Assembly: GCF_964213995.1 (NCBI RefSeq) | Contig: NW_027590139.1 | Location: 744,001 to 808,000 of the forward strand | From: Mustelus asterias | Lineage: Eukaryota | Length of the DNA: 64,000 nucleotides | Direction: 5' to 3' | Part shown: positions 2,940 to 55,250 of the stretch, in pieces | Position numbering within the stretch: position 1 is the first letter of the stretch | Layout: every line of letters begins with the position of its first letter | Translations under genes and position numbers: made by a program | The notes under the pieces: model-generated | Seen by the model: only the letters and a program-made list of their open reading frames with translations | Database searches by the model: none | Told to the model about the DNA's origin: nothing

Positions 2940-3960
2940 TCTCGGCTGCAAACGTGAGGTGCAGCCTGGGAGTGGGTGAAGCTGTTTGAAAATCTGATGC
3001 TCAAATTTAGTCATTTTTCCGAGCACTAGGACCCGGTGGGAGCAGAAACACAAAGACCCGCCCCCTCACGGTTGCGTCACCAAGACACCAGCGCATGCGC
3101 TCTGCTCCCTGCTCAATCAAGATGGCGGCTGTTAACCTGAGCTTCGTCTCGGGAAAAAGACCCGAAACTGCAAACACGGGACCTACGGGCTCATATTCGA
3201 TGTTTGAGGCCTTTAACAGGTATTTAGAAACCGTCTACGTCCATCCGCCTGTTCGATTGCTCCCTCTATGTTTCTGCATCCTTACCGGCTGCTGATGAGA
3301 CAGAGGAACTTCTCTCCAGTCGCTGTCACCCGCACTGCGCGTGCTGCAAACGCCTTTGCTTACCGCGCATGCGCACTTCTCCCATGCGTGGAACAGGGAA
3401 CTCTTCCGATTGGTCCGGAGCTGCGCATGTTTCAGGTTCCGCCCCTCATTCACTCCGATTGATTGGAGGACCAGCCGCTCCTGCTCGGTCCTCCAGTCCC
3501 GCCCCCTCTTCCGATTGGTTCGGAGCTGCCGTCAATCAGTCACCTGGGCATTGTGATGTGGAGCATGCGCAGTGTCATTGCTGGCCTTGGCGCTTGTTTG
3601 TCCCGGAGAAGCGGAGTCAGCGTTAGGCGGTGGCTGGGAGGATTTGGAAACACTTTGTGGATCCGCAAACCCTTCAGAATCATTGTCAGCTCCCTGGTTT
3701 GCAGCTGCGGGGCTTCTCCCTCCCTCCCTCCCGGGAACAGGCCCAGGTTAACGGCCCCATCCTGGCTCAGCCACTGGAGGATGGTTCACATCAGAGGATG
3801 GGGGAGGGGGACAATAAATAAGAGGTTACACTTTGGCCTCAAATCAATGAGGACTCTGATCTCTGGGAAGGAAGGAAACCCTGGGAGGTGGGCGGGGAGG
3901 ATTCACAAACACCCGCTGGAGGCCCCAACATCCCCAATAAGACCCATTGGTTTTATTGTC
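2940..3960. promoter_or_regulatory. CpG-rich, probably bidirectional promoter and first-exon cassette upstream of Z1
   Basis: NRF1 palindrome GCGCATGCGC at 3091 and 3365, YY1 motif CAAGATGGCGGC at 3118, repeated ATTGG and CCGCCC; inverted paralogues at 22.6-23.1 kb and 52.9-54.05 kb. Confidence 0.75.
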
Positions 3961-3993
3961 AGTCTGCAGACAGCAGCTGGAGAACTGAATCCA

Positions 3994-4871
3994 CAGTAAG
4001 AGTTTTAACAACACCAGGTTAAAGTCCAACAGGTTTATTTGGCAGCAAATGCCATTAGCTTTCGGAGCGCTGCTCCTTTGTCCGATTGAGTGGATATCTG
4101 CTCTCAAACAGGGCATACAGAGACAGAAAATCAAGTTACAGAATACTGATTAGAATGCGAATCTTTACAGCTAATCAGGTCTTAAAGATACAGACAGTGT
4201 GAGTGGAGGGAGCATTAGGCACAGGTTAATGAAATGAGTATTGTCTCCAGACAGGACAGCCAGTGAGATTCTGCAAGTCCAGGAGGCAAGCTGTGGGGGT
4301 TACCGATAGTGTGACATGAACCCAACATCCCGGTTTAGGTCGCCCTCATGTGTGCGGAACTTGGCTCTCAGTTCTGCTCAGCGACTCTGCGCTGTCGTGT
4401 GTCGTGAAGGCCGCCTTGGAGAATGCTTACCCGAAGATCAGAGGCTGAATGCCCATGACCGCTGAAGTGTTCCCCAACAGGAAATGAACGGTCTTGCCTG
4501 GTGATTGTCGAGCCGTGTTCATTCAGCCGTTGTCGTAGCATGGTTTCCCCAATGTACTATGCCTCGGGGCATCCTTTCCTGCAGCGTATTAGGTAGACAA
4601 TGTTGGCCGAGTTGCAAGAGTAGGTACCGTGTATCAGGTAGATGGTGTTCTCACGTGAGACGATGGCATCCGTGTCGATGATCCGGCACGTCTTGCAGAG
4701 GTTGCTGTGGCAGGGTTGTGTGGTGTCGTGGTCGCTGTTCTCCTGAAGGCTGGTTAGTTTGCTGCGGACAATGGTCTGTTTGAGGTTGTGCGGTTGTTTG
4801 AAGGCAAGAAGTGGGGGTGTGGGGATGGTCTTGACGAGATGTTCGTCTTCATCAATGACATGTCATTGATC
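3994..4871 (-). mobile_element. Penelope-like element (family 1): GIY-YIG endonuclease region plus pseudo-LTR
   Basis: Minus strand reads PCHSNLCKTC...SCNSANIVYLIRCRKGCPEA*YIGET...VGEHFS; 13-bp target-site duplication AGAACTGAATCCA at 3981-3993 and 4872-4884; degenerate hammerhead near 4062-4088. Confidence 0.9.
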
Positions 4872-25115: not shown

Positions 25116-25632
25116 CAGTGAGAGAAGTTGCCTGAAGCGGTGGCAAAGAATTTGGTTACACTTCAGCCCCAGGCTCCTCATGTTTACATAGAAACATACT
25201 AGAAAATATAAGTCGGGAGGAGGCTATTCGGCCCTTCGAGCTTGCTCCGCTGTTCATTCTGGTCACGGCTGATCATCAAATTCAATATCGTAATCCCGCC
25301 TCCCCCCCCCCCCCCCCCCCCCACCCCACCCCCCCGTATCCCTTGATCCCCAAGAAATGTATCTAATTCCTTATTGAAATCAGACTCTACTACTTTTGAG
25401 GAAGGGACTTCCGAAGATTCAAGACTCTGAATGAAATAAAACCTTCTCAGCTCTGTCTTCAATGGGCAGCACTGTTTTTTAAACAGTGACCCCCAGATTC
25501 TCCCATAAGAGTAAACATCCTCTCCACATCCAAGACCTTTCAGAATCTCGAAGGTTTAAATTAAGTTGCCTCTTACTCTTTTAAAGTCGAGCAGAAGCTA
25601 AACTTGAGCAGAGAATGTCTCTGGTGTTATTA

Positions 25633-25780
25633 TGTGGTCATGATGTGGAGATGCCAGCGTTGGACTGGGGTAAACACAGTAAGAGTTTTAACAACACCAG
25701 GTTAAAGTCCAACAGGTTTATTTGATAGCAAATACCATTAGCTTTCGGAGCGCTGCTCCTTCGTCAGATAGAGTGGAAAT
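25633..25780 (-). mobile_element. Short Penelope-like (family 1) pLTR fragment
   Basis: Matches 53760-53903 and 3994-4095. Confidence 0.85.
25735..25771 (-). ncRNA. Minimal type-I hammerhead ribozyme motif with intact core
   Basis: CUAU-CUGACGA-A-GGAGC-AGC-GCUCC-GAAA-GC-UA-AUGG. Confidence 0.75.
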
Positions 25781-49400: not shown

Positions 49401-49902
49401 TAATGGCGTCATTGTCAATCAAAGACAATAATAGAAAATTATCTTGTGCAATTAAGATCAATTAATTTTTAAAAATGCATTCCTCGGAATTTGTGCGCTG
49501 CCATTCTCTATTTCTAAAATTAATTTAAACCAGTGCTCTCCTGTGGGAATACCCCGAGTTTTAAAAACTTTTCCCACTGGTTTCCTCTCCTCTCTCTGCT
49601 CTCCTGAAGGTGCTCATACTGGTTGGGTAAGTCCCACAGAGACTGGTTTCTTGCACTTTCTTTCTCCTGATGCTGACTATTCTGTTTTATGGAATGATAC
49701 ATCACAGATGGAAACCACTTGGCACATCCTGCCCAGTCGGGCTGTCTTTAAGATTTGTCCAATTAATCCCACAGCCCTGCTGGCAGAGTGAGAACGATAT
49801 CTATATGTACTGCAGCAATGCAGGAGGTGAATGGAAAATGTTTTCCAGTTGCATACCTCTCAGACACACTCACCCCTAGAAAGATAAATTGGCCCTGTGT
49901 AC

Positions 49903-50860
49903 TAAGAACAAAGAAAATTGCAGCACAGGAACTGGCCGTTCGGCCCTCCAAGCCTGCACCGACCATACTGCCCGACTTAACTAAAACCCACTACCCTCCC
50001 AGGGACCATATCCCTCTATTCCCATCTCATTCATGTACTTGTCAAGACGTCGCTTAAAAGTCAAGACCGTATCTGCTTCCACTACCTCCCCCGGCAATGA
50101 ATACCAGGCACCCACCACTCTCTGTGTAAAACATCTGCCTCGTACATCTCTTTTAAACTTTACCCCTCGCACCTTAAACCTATTCCCCACAGTAATTGAC
50201 TCTTCCACCCTGGGAAAAAGCTTCTGACAATCCACTCTTTCCATGCCTCTCATAATCTTGTAGACTTCTATCAGGTCTCCCCTCAACCTCCATCGCTCAA
50301 GTGAGAACAAACCAAGTTTCTCCAACCTCTCCTCAAAGCTAATGCCCTCCATACCAGGCAACATCCTGGTAAATCTTTTCTGGACCCTCTCCAAAGCCTT
50401 CCTTCTGGTAGTGTGGCGACCAGAATTGAACACTATATTCCACGTGCGGCCTAACTAAGGTTCTATAAAGCTGCAACATGGCTTGCCAATTTTAAACTCA
50501 ATGCCCCAGCCGATGAAGGTAAGCATGCCGTATACCTTCTTGATGACCTTCTCCATCTGCATTGCCACTTTCAGTAATCTGTGTACCTGTACACCCAGAT
50601 CCCTCTGCCTATCAATATTGTTAAAGGTTCTGCCATTTACTGTATATTTCCTATCTGTATTAGACCTTCCAAACGGCATTACCTCACATTTGTCCGGATT
50701 AAACTCCATCTGTCATCTCTCCACCCAAGTCTCCAACTGGCCTATATCCTGCTGTATCCTCTGATGGTCCTCATCACTATCCGCAAATCCACCAACCTTT
50801 GTGTCGTCCGCAAACGTACCTATCAATCCAGTTACATTTTCCTCCAAATCATTTATATAT
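49903..50860 (-). mobile_element. CR1 LINE truncating Z10
   Basis: IYINDLEE...FADDTKVGG; MEFNPDKCEVM. Confidence 0.9.
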
Positions 50861-50861
50861 A

Positions 50862-51296
50862 TTATATATATCCTGTGTGAATTCGCTGTTGTGTCCAAAG
50901 ACTGGATGGCCCAGCAAAATCCTTCCCACACAAGGAGCAGGTGAACAATCTCTCCCCAGTGTGAACTCGCTGATGTGCACTGAGGTTGGATGAACATGAG
51001 AACCCCTTTCCACAGGTGGAGCAGCTGAACGGCCTCTCCTCAGTGTGAATTTGCTGGTGTAACAGCAGGTGGGATAGTGAATCCTTTCCCAAACACAGAA
51101 CAGATGGCCTCTCTCCAGTGTGACTGAGTCTATGGTTTTCCAGCAAGTACAGATAATTGAATCCTTTATCACAATCATCACATTTCCATGGTTTCTCCAT
51201 TTTCCCAGCCCTAATGTGACCGTGTCGATGGGTTTCCAACCGGGATGGATAATTGAATCCTTTACCACAATCCTCACATTTCCACGGTTTGTCCAT
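50862..51296 (-). pseudogene. Z10: short degenerate ZNF cut by a CR1
   Basis: Two MxKPWKC start fingers, one internally deleted finger, array ends at the CR1 junction. Confidence 0.8.
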
Positions 51297-52261
51297 GGTG
51301 CTGGTGTCCTTCTGTCTCTCCAGGTTGGATGATTAGTTGAAGCCTCATCCACATACAGACCATGGTGTGATGTTTTTCAGGCTATGTAACTGGTTAAAGC
51401 TCTATCCACAGTCAGTTCACTGGAGCACTCTCACTTGGGTGTATGTGTGTGTCTCAGTTCTTTTTCTGTCACATTGAATTTCGAAATTTTCTTCCACTGA
51501 CAAAACAGGGAACGATTTATCCCTCCACTGTCAAAAGCAATCATATTTAGGTCATGATGAATCGAATGGCTCTGTCAGACTTTGATGTGAAGTTTAGTTT
51601 GAGTTTCCTGTCTGTGAATCTTCCTCTTCTAGTTCCCTGCACAAAGAGCTTTAAAAAACTGCTTCAGAACAGACAATTTCAGTTTCCACGAAACATTTCT
51701 CTGTCTCATTTATCTTGAGCTGTAATCCCCATCCCACACACTCTCTCTTGTCCCTGAGCTGAAATCAATCTCATTGCCCCATCTCCACTCTGAGCCCAGC
51801 TCCCTCTCCCTCCAGCTGGATTCAGTCCTGCAGGCCATGTGCAGATTGAGAGTACAATCAAGGAGTCAATTATTTTCCGTCCAAGTCAGGGGCCGTGCAG
51901 CCCCACTGACTCTGTTGTTACCACAATGGGCACACGTGCTCTGCTCACCAATGAAACACCACAATGACCATTAACATCGGCCTGTTCCTTGGAAAAGCTC
52001 CATTTTATTTGTGCCACAACAGCAGCGGAATTACCTCCTGCACAGGCACAAAGGTATCATCAGTCACAGAAAATAATTGCAGCTGGTGTCTCAAACCTCA
52101 TTTTACCATTTGCTCCCAGACATTCTCAATTCAATTTTGAAATGCAAACTGAAATCTGGCAAAGTGGGGTAAATTAAACACATTTTAATGGTCATTTTCA
52201 GAATGACTATTTCCGAGAATTAATTCCCAAGTCAGGAAATTAAAATTCTCATCAGCAATGT

Positions 52262-52590
52262 CGGCGGCACAGTGGTTAGCACTGCTGCCTCACAGCTCCA
52301 GGGACCTGGGTTTGATTCCCAACTTGGGTCGCTGTCCGTGTGGAGTCTGCCCATTCTCCCCATGTCAGCGTGGGTTTTCTCCAGATGCTCCGGTTTCCTC
52401 CCATTGTCCAAAGATATGCCAGTTACGTGCATTGGCTATGCTAAATTGCCCCTTCGTGTCCCGGGATGAGTAGGTTAGAGGGATTAGCAGGTTACATATG
52501 TGGGGTTATGGGAATAGGGCCTAGGTGGGATTGTTGTCGGTGCAGACTCGATGGGCCGAACAACCTCCTTCAGCACTGTCGGGATATGAA
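52262..52590 (+). mobile_element. HE1-type V-SINE
   Basis: GGCGGCACAGTGGTTAGC head, V-domain and tail. Confidence 0.87.
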
Positions 52591-53293
52591 ATACATTGGG
52601 AGAATTGCTATTTTAATGGGTATTTTCACAAATGCTATAAAATGATTTTTCAACACAAATTAATATTTTCTTCAACAGATGATTAATAAATAAAAAGTAT
52701 TTAATAAAACAACCACCCAGTGTGGGGTTCAGGATTCTAACTCAGGGTTTCTGAGCTCCAGGAACCACTAACTGAACCAACCGAGAATTGTCTCCACAAA
52801 ACTTCCCCAACTCCCTCCCGGGAAAAAGCTGCAAACCCGGGAGCTGCAGCTTTTTACTGGGGGTGTTGGGGCCTCCAGCGGGTGTTTGTGAATCCTCCCC
52901 GCCCACCTCCCAGGGTTTCTTTCCTTCCCAGAGATCAGAGTCCTCATTGATTTGAGGCCAAAGTGTAACCTGTTATTTATTGTCCCCCTCCCCCATCCTC
53001 TGATGTGAACCATCCCCCAGTGGCTGAGCCAGGATGGGGCCGTTAACCTGGGCCTGTTCCCGGGAGGGAGAAGCCCCGCAGCTGCAAACCAGGGAGCTGA
53101 CAATGATTCTGAAGGGTTTGCGGATCCACAAAGTGTTTCCAAATCCTCCCAGCCACCGCCTAACGCTGACTCCGCTTCTCCGGGACAAACAAGCGCCAAG
53201 GACAGCAATGACACTGCGCATGCTCCACATCACAATAAGAAGTTTAACAACACCAGGTTAAAGTCCAACAGGTTTATTTGGTAGCAAAAGCCA

Positions 53294-53330
53294 CACAAGC
53301 TTTCGAGGCTCTAAGCCCCTTCTTCAGGTG
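53294..53330 (-). ncRNA. Minimal hammerhead ribozyme motif
   Basis: CAC-CUGAAGA-A-GGGGC-UUAGA-GCCUC-GAAA-GC-UU-GUG. Confidence 0.75.
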
Positions 53331-53760
53331 AGTGGGAATTCTGTTCACAAACAGAATTTATAAAGACACAGACTCAATTTACATGAATAATGGTTGGAAT
53401 GCGAATACTTACAACTAATCCAGTCTTTAAGAAACAAAACAATGGGAGTGGAGAGAGCATCAAGACAGGCTAAAAAGATGTGTATTGTCTCCAGACAAGA
53501 CAGCCAGTGAAACTCTGCAGGTCCACGCAACTGTGGGAGTTACAAATATTGCGTCCACAGTTGCGTGGACCTGCAGAGTTTCACTGGCTGTCTTGTCTGG
53601 AGACAATACACATCTTTTTAGCCTGTCTTGATGCTCTCTCCACTCCCATTGTTTTGTTTCTTAAAGACTTGATTAGTTGTAAGTATTCGCATTCCAACCA
53701 TTATTCATGTAAATTGAGTCTGTGTCTTTATAAATTCTGTTTGTGAACAGAATTCCCACT

Positions 53761-53797
53761 CACCTGAAGAAGGGGCTTAGAGCTTCGAAAGCTTGTG
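53761..53797 (+). ncRNA. Minimal hammerhead ribozyme motif
   Basis: CAC-CUGAAGA-A-GGGGC-UUAGA-GCUUC-GAAA-GC-UU-GUG. Confidence 0.72.
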
Positions 53798-54307
53798 TGG
53801 CTTTTGCTACCAAATAAACCTGTTGGACTTTAACCTGGTGTTGTTAAACTTCTTACTGTGTTTACCCCAGTCCAACGCCGGCATCTCCACATCATGACCA
53901 CATCACAATGCCCGGGGACTGATTGACGGCAGCTCCGGACCAATAGGAAGAGGGGGCGGGTCTGGAGGACCGAGCTGGAGCGGCTGGTCCTCCAACCAAT
54001 CGGAGTGAAGGAGGGGCGGGACCTGAAGCATTCGCAGTGCGGGTAATGGCGACGGACGGACGGTTTTAACTCGGAAGCGAGATCAATACGAGGTAGAGGG
54101 CGGCGTGCGGGGAATGATAAATGTGGCGGGTGGGTGGAGAGACTTTGTAAACATGTTGTTCAAACCCAATCCCCGGAAATGAACTTCCCGGTTCCCCCCC
54201 TTTGTACCAAATGGAGCGGCAGCTTGTAGTGTTAGACCCGGGCTGACTGCCGCCATTGAGGCTGCATGTGGGAGGCCGGCAGGGATTGTGATCGGAGAGT
54301 GAAGCCC

Positions 54308-54415
54308 TGACGTCACAATGGAATGGGTGGGAGTGTGAGGTCACAATGGAATGGGTGAGAGTGTGACGTCACAATGGAATGGGTGAGAGTGTGATGTCAC
54401 AATGGAATGGGTGAG
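54308..54415. repeat. Four copies of a 28-bp minisatellite containing CRE sites
   Basis: TGACGTCA at 54308 and 54364; variants TGAGGTCA at 54336 and TGATGTCA at 54392. Confidence 0.9.
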
Positions 54416-54472
54416 GGTTCCAGATGAGCTGAGACTGGGCTGGAGTCGGGCGATGGCACTGACATGTGGCCC

Positions 54473-54775: not shown

Positions 54776-54899
54776 TTACTGTTAATTAATTAATTACTTT
54801 GAATGAAGGTGGTCTTGATGATGATGTGGACGTGGCTGGAAGCTCATATTGGGATGAACTATTTCACCCTGGTTGTGAACAGCCTAGTTCAGCCTCAGA

Positions 54900-55250
54900 C
54901 AGTAAGTAATCTCACAACACCAGGTTAAAATCCAACAGGTTAATTTGGTGGCATAAGCCACAGGATTTTGGAGCGCTGCTCTTCATCAGGTGAGTGGGAG
55001 TTCTATTCACAAACAGGGCACAGAGACACAAACTCAATTTACAAAATAATGGTTGGAAGAGTCTTTACAGGTAATCAAGTCTTAAAGGTACAGACAATGT
55101 GAGTGGAGAGAGGGTGAAGCACAGGTTAAAGAGATGTGTATTGTCTCCAGCCAGGACAGTTAGTGAGATTTTGCAAGCCCAGGCAAGTTGTGGGGGTTAC
55201 AGACAGTGTGACATGAACCCAAGAACCCGGTTGAGGCCGTCCTCATGTGT
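54900..55250 (-). mobile_element. Penelope-like family 1 pLTR and ORF end, with a degenerate hammerhead
   Basis: THEDGLNRVLGFMSH; CUGAUGA present but GAAA changed to AAAA. Confidence 0.85.

Follow-up and report, generated by a model that had tools for sequence, protein, structure and literature searches.

A palindromic Penelope-like insertion in a multicopy zinc-finger promoter of Mustelus asterias and the spaced-palindrome target of its family

Introduction

Positions 53225 to 53909 of the window (the whole stretch of 64,000 nucleotides analysed here, which lies on contig C107 of a 3.68 Gb genome) hold a nearly perfect palindrome, inserted in the promoter of a zinc-finger gene, Z10. What kind of enzyme writes such a structure, how does it find its target, and does the result do anything for the host? 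A preliminary description had read the palindrome as a young Penelope insertion with two outward-facing ribozymes whose priming was helped by homology between element and target, and had suggested that the promoter acts as a transposon trap and that Z10 may have been silenced. We compared the locus with its paralogs, with other copies of the element in the genome and with published accounts of related elements. These accounts are cited by PMC number or DOI and are represented by the portions of their text available to us.

Results

Structure of the insertion

The insertion consists of two truncated copies of one element, in opposite orientations, between the two copies of a duplicated target:

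3421 to 3940, plus strand: paralogous promoter module with the empty target at 3550-3561, recognised by sequence comparison
53225 to 53236, plus strand: left copy of the 12-bp target-site duplication, a direct repeat that is single copy in empty paralogs
53237 to 53548, minus strand: inverted, tail-less, 5'-truncated 3' end of the element (last ORF codons and pLTR), 99.4% identical to the full-length copy L053
53549 to 53554, no strand: junction filler of 3-6 nt, identical to 53561-53566
53555 to 53854, plus strand: sense, 5'-truncated pLTR copy, 98.8% identical to L053
53855 to 53897, plus strand: one-sided tail of 43 nt, ending at the element's ORF start codon (53894-53896)
53898 to 53909, plus strand: right copy of the 12-bp duplication, in which the initial 4 nt agree with the closest subfamily's RNA as well

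The palindrome arms (53231-53536 and 53555-53860) are 99% complementary and lie 18 nt apart, and within the element proper (53237-53536) they mismatch at 2 of 300 positions (53307/53784 and 53421/53670), in agreement with the roughly two differences and the 18-nt spacer first described. The inverted arm really extends to about 53548-53551, which leaves just the 3-6 nt of filler as spacer. The 12-bp target-site duplication is likewise a true direct repeat, and the uninterrupted site in the paralogous promoter is found, in reverse orientation, at 3550-3561. The tail is on the right end and the left arm is without one; the one-sided tail of such elements has been defined in PMC8557442 and PMC11167929. 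The final 6 nt of what had been quoted as the element's 3' end belong to the target duplication, and 4 of them also match the element RNA.

An assembly artefact is an unlikely source of the palindrome, because the insertion and its flanks recur in four places, three with private mutations in the arms and one with identical arms, and a fifth copy of the same insertion exists in partly deleted form. We also rejected a MITE-like fixed palindromic unit: an identical centre occurs only in segmental duplicates with common flanks, and independent copies differ in centre and length.

The parent Penelope-like family

The genome contains 23,176 exact matches to a 45-nt piece of the palindrome's right end. 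Among the first 100 tail-bearing copies on contig C1, for each of which 1.5-3 kb was fetched, 72 have an inverted arm and 28 have none within the fetched range. Since inverted copies predominate in this sample and the arrangement is described as typical in PMC8557442 and PMC3846280, the palindrome is an ordinary footprint of an abundant Penelope-like family.

The full-length copy L053 carries an intact 892-aa ORF with a reverse transcriptase (RT) domain (Pfam RVT_1, E 9.5e-10) plus, at the C terminus, a GIY-YIG endonuclease that was read from the sequence; Pfam did not detect GIY-YIG. Directly before the GIY-YIG lies a CX4CxxC linker, which falls within the CX2-5CxxC definition of Neptune/Nematis (PMC8557442). 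The arms of the palindrome are 98-99% identical to the L053 3' end and its tail ends at the L053 start codon. The preliminary reading as a young Penelope-like insertion is right; over the full arm, L048 is the closest (99.0%) among 11 copies compared. Three hallmarks of EN+ Penelope-like elements (PLEs) are present: RT and C-terminal GIY-YIG in a single ORF of the parent element, a pLTR with an inverted 5'-truncated copy and a one-sided tail (43 nt here), and a minimal hammerhead motif in the pLTR. We assign the family as Neptune-type by the linker motif, which covers Neptune and Nematis alike. The Penelope/Poseidon clade, which is without the CX2-5CxxC linker that the family here possesses, was rejected.

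Other arrangements also occur. L053 (880-3558, minus strand) and L051 are full-length partial-tandem copies between inverted pLTRs, with 13-bp duplications. Five of the 72 inverted-arm copies (L034, L075, L081, L102 and L106) have tails on both arms, with no duplication found, and could be separate insertions that lie side by side. The window also holds older pieces of Penelope-like sequence (78-88% identity) at 3992-4311, 25632-25780 and 54899-55201; many promoter paralogs have the one at 3992 in the same position.

Hammerhead motifs

Each arm contains one hammerhead motif:

53294 to 53330, minus strand: mirror copy of the minimal hammerhead motif, core boxes read from the sequence
53761 to 53797, plus strand: minimal hammerhead motif with a stem I of 3 bp and a stem II of 6 bp and without its own stem III, read against the description in PMC4209133

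Both face outward, and as sequence motifs the two ribozymes of the preliminary description are confirmed. They share with the minimal metazoan PLE hammerheads of PMC4209133 the core boxes, the extra base before stem II, the G10.1-C11.1 pair and the palindromic 15.2-16.2, and show no difference of substance from the motifs in the portion of that paper compared. The paper had already described hammerheads paired on opposite strands at distances of 100-700 bp, and its single minimal motifs gave no cleavage in vitro. An Rfam scan of the window returned 0 matches at gathering score, the hammerhead motifs included, and the motif does not form in the single-strand (monomer) fold of the element. An active hammerhead in read-through RNA is not supported: the antisense arm is transcribed first in either direction, and the hammerhead would therefore be paired with it.

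A spaced palindrome at the family's target sites

A target duplication was found in 64 of the 72 inverted-arm copies, and the rebuilt empty sites display a symmetric motif. The spacing TG-N16-CA occurs at 43 of these 64 sites and TG-N17-CA at 12, for a total of 55/64 with (C)TG-N16/17-CA(G), while shuffled controls for TG/CA spacing give a mean of 0.8 and a maximum of 3-4 per spacing. The target profile reads CTG, 2 bases, a 12-bp core, 2 bases, CAG, with the left half stronger. Fixed in advance as a rule, the motif held in a second subfamily at 13 of 16 sites and, in a further set, at 16 of 17 (maximum in shuffles, 3); these test sets exclude the 13/30 and 10/27 loci that gave no tail, arm or duplication, and one dropped duplicate. 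At the present site one half of the motif is intact:

53221 to 53222, plus strand: TG half of the family motif, separated from the start of the duplication by 2 nt, as the rule predicts

The other half-site is CC at 53912-53913, where the family consensus is CA. The site is thus an imperfect match, TG-N16-CC, of a class that makes up 4 of the 64 sites.

Short microhomology at both junctions

We scored microhomology as the match of the target to the RNA just past the junction, with the nicks placed by the motif. From the 64 sites we dropped 11 (9 without a TG-N16/17-CA match and 2 duplicate targets); junctions whose ends were shifted or that held untemplated bases were then removed as well, 6 on the right and 8 on the left. 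Target-RNA microhomology is 1.32 nt at the right, tail-side junctions (n=47) and 1.29 nt at the left ones (n=45), against permuted values of 0.43 and 0.49, and none of 20,000 permutations reaches the observed value on either side. No microhomology is present at 14 of the 47 right and 15 of the 45 left junctions. At the present site the overlap is 4 nt if the source is the L048 subfamily. We found no report of a spaced-palindrome target with two-sided microhomology in the literature we searched (mostly open-access, and including the available portion of bioRxiv 10.64898/2026.07.22.740005); structure, tail, ribozyme and duplication were already known.

A second insertion at the same 12 bases

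A paralogous promoter (G000:C469) contains an independent, shorter palindrome whose 12-bp duplication is identical and whose tail lies at the opposite end. Either nick can therefore prime the tail-bearing copy, and the cut positions are independent of orientation and of tail likeness: the opposite pair at the same 12 bases is a natural test of target symmetry. Two insertions at one promoter site exceed our estimate of about 0.03-0.04 per 650 copies (0.004 if random), which is a lower bound, since the promoter copy number is itself a lower bound. Open promoter chromatin or another factor may therefore favour the site. A further copy, L223 (G000:C106), has a tandem repeat of about 35 bp that abuts the exact end of the same 12-bp target, possibly a third event there.

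The pair also bears on the homology-assisted priming that was originally proposed, which stands in kind, as short microhomology throughout the family, but not in detail, since the 10-bp likeness between tail and target cited for it is a one-off. It is the longest of 65 sites, and the other 64 share 3-7 nt, like shuffles. That this likeness guided the insertion, with the promoter family serving as a homology-directed hot spot, is scarcely credible even though the likeness is real and the site was struck twice. The insertion junction sits 11 nt beyond the likeness; the primer strand of the second, opposite insertion is not complementary to that stretch of RNA, yet the same cuts were used; family targets show no tail likeness above shuffles; and just 2 events occurred among about 650 copies.

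Both arms derive from one template

Arm pairs agree at 402 of 431 subfamily-diagnostic sites, compared with 56% for random pairs, and the 5' breaks of the two arms correlate (rho 0.84), with 36 of 57 pairs within 30 nt where 12.6 are expected. For the break comparison 15 elements with central gaps >50 nt were dropped, and one artefact (L133) may remain in the 36/57. Given the matched subfamily variants and the correlated breaks, both arms derive from one template.

How one RNA could give two opposed copies is suggested by the in vitro behaviour of an anole PLE (PMC11167929): both target strands are nicked and extended, and reverse transcription begins at a pair of neighbouring RNA sites that bound the tail. 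On balance we favour a dimeric enzyme that reads CTG-N16-CAG, makes a double nick with a 12-nt stagger and primes from both ends on one RNA. The enzyme would nick both strands of the symmetric target 12 bases apart, each strand presumably 2 nt before the CA(G) half-site. Of the two ends, one would then prime where the tail ends and its partner about 40 nt upstream, with 1-4 paired bases probably helping in each case; both copies would stop early and be joined by end-joining.

Fold-back copying would account just as well for the correlated breaks and the matched arms. In that case one nick would prime a tail-bearing cDNA, which self-primes a DNA copy; this copy ends close to the tail and pairs with the overhang of the second strand. 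Self-priming has been proposed for PLE head-to-head repeats (PMC3846280), and the arms of the present insertion were identical when it was made, as copy L004 shows (0 differences). We nonetheless regard it as unlikely. Of the 57 simple elements, 21 have breaks >30 nt apart and 27 have an inverted arm longer than the sense arm, as does the present insertion, by 12-15 nt; a fold-back copy could exceed its template only by the loop. Inverted arms with element sequence far beyond the sense arm, which would count against fold-back, were seen in part. Several centres are perfect palindromes without a loop, and the positions of the tail-less end are confined to a narrow zone, which corresponds to the second RT start site seen in vitro (PMC11167929).

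What was observed directly comprises the family and its target motif, the structure, the length of the duplication, the microhomology at the junctions, the matched variants of the arms and the second, opposite insertion. From this we consider it likely that the palindrome is a truncated, non-coding insertion of a Neptune-type PLE, made by a double nick 12 bases apart with both 3' ends copying the same RNA, and that it has no host function. The zinc-finger gene whose promoter received it was damaged by then, and gene and insertion were later duplicated together.

The promoter module and its duplicates

The insertion splits a promoter module that exists in many copies:

52854 to 53236, minus strand: multicopy ZNF leader module (presumed first exon), 96% identical to 3550-3940 and 95-99% identical to 25 of 25 paralogs fetched
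53898 to 54069, no strand: portion of the promoter module that holds the CCAAT and GC boxes, its distance from the leader increased by 673 bp, with a CpG o/e of 0.85

The insertion has the CCAAT boxes (53940 and 53996) and GC boxes on its right and Z10 on its left, so the boxes are indeed separated from the Z10 side with its presumed first exon, as had been noted. Just right of the promoter, window 54308-54446 contains 4-5 tandem 28-bp units with a TGACGTCA motif. Two of the duplicates, L143 and L144, have about 1.2 kb of extra LINE-like sequence at 54069 (compare window 54064-54069) that is absent from the window. One assembled contig, from another organism and a run presumed to be RNA, spans the empty site; contigs give neither strand, start nor level.

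The target module is present as 643 exact empty copies, compared with 4 intact filled sites. The 4 intact copies of the present insertion have common flanks of 7-14 kb, and duplication involved these whole blocks, not the element alone. The fifth copy (L213, on G000:C261) has lost the left arm and the leader module through a 1,454-bp deletion equivalent to window 52080-53533. The deletion ends 3 bp from the palindrome spacer, with 2-bp microhomology, and as a single case is compatible with palindrome fragility.

Z10 was damaged before the insertion

The gene beside the palindrome is itself interrupted:

49900 to 50870, minus strand: LINE reverse-transcriptase fragment truncating Z10, presumably CR1-like and older than the palindrome
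50862 to 51296, minus strand: Z10 reading frame with 3 intact and 2 degenerate C2H2 fingers, its 3' end cut by the LINE

In the window copy the Z10 frame is open, and stops lie upstream of the start codon. We fetched 20 of the 40 Z10 paralogs listed. All 20 contain the LINE junction, 15 a 4-bp frameshift in finger 3 and 4 the older in-frame form. Their target site is empty in 12, with an independent insertion, another repeat and a deleted copy in one each and no site in range in 5. At about 51060-51100 of the window, in comparison with L213-L232, the palindrome-bearing copies have the 4-bp loss and a further 5-bp loss that restores the frame. Because the LINE junction and frameshift extend to paralogs with empty sites, both lesions predate the palindrome. 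This runs against the suggestion that the insertion silenced an intact Z10, although it may have changed the expression of the already damaged gene. At 95-100% identity, at least 40 copies of the LINE-truncated Z10 unit exist (C71, C87-C109, C124-C669 and others); it is a damaged gene that is duplicated again and again.

A transposon trap is very unlikely

If transcribed, the palindrome would form the stable hairpin of about 300 bp that had been anticipated: the read-through RNA is predicted to fold at -587.9 kcal/mol. This stability, the position of the element within a CpG-rich promoter module, the duplication of the insertion to 5 copies and the existence of small RNAs against PLEs in rotifers (PMC3846280) could all be taken to mean that the ZNF promoter drives a 300-bp hairpin RNA for small-RNA or ADAR silencing, and that the copy is kept for that purpose. 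We consider such a functional trap very unlikely. Inverted copies are the family norm, and thousands of equivalent palindromes would form the same hairpin. The arms are collecting private mutations, one of the five copies has lost an arm to its deletion, and whole blocks were duplicated rather than the element. No enrichment or retention of the insertion is seen across the promoter family, with 643 empty copies against 2 independent events, and we found no report of a shark zinc-finger trap in the mostly open-access literature searched. As judged from sequence, the palindrome is most likely without host function: the locus is one of thousands and probably does nothing.

Discussion

What this locus adds is a same-site pair of insertions in opposite orientation and a dating that clears the insertion of silencing Z10. 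The origin of inverted PLE structures was called unresolved in PMC8557442; if correct, a dimeric enzyme that primes from both ends would account for their head-to-head arrangement and for the tail on one side, a long-standing puzzle. With its defined target motif and an intact 892-aa ORF, the family can be put directly to the in vitro assay already published. Such an element, cutting at a short symmetric motif and copying itself in from both ends, would, if real, also be relevant to developers of RNA-templated insertion tools.

Among known systems, the Neptune/Nematis type PLEs described in PMC8557442 agree with the family here in their RT and C-terminal GIY-YIG with internal cysteines and CX4CxxC linker, in 5' truncation with an inverted truncated copy at the 5' end, and in a one-sided tail of 30-40 bp and a hammerhead in the pLTR. 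That paper, in the portion available, ties the linker to microsatellite targeting, whereas the target here is the spaced palindrome (C)TG-N16/17-CA(G) with duplication of a 12-13 bp core.

The Penelope families of Adineta vaga (PMC3846280) resemble the elements here in their inverted pLTRs, the tail on one pLTR and palindromic junctions; they have 8-10 bp duplications and small-RNA silencing of the family. Their structures were put down to self-priming on an antisense template, and no target motif is given in the portion of that account available.

PAc, the Poseidon element of Anolis carolinensis (PMC11167929), also cuts and extends both strands, as we infer here, and can be likened to the present family in its two adjacent RT start sites bounding the tail, its predicted dimer and its protein-assisted hammerhead. 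It differs in preferring ATT in AT-rich DNA, where the family here has a symmetric CTG/CAG motif, and in RNA start sites that are reported as non-homologous to the target, where we see significant microhomology of 1-4 nt. The PAc ORF starts within the hammerhead, whereas the ORF here starts at the tail end.
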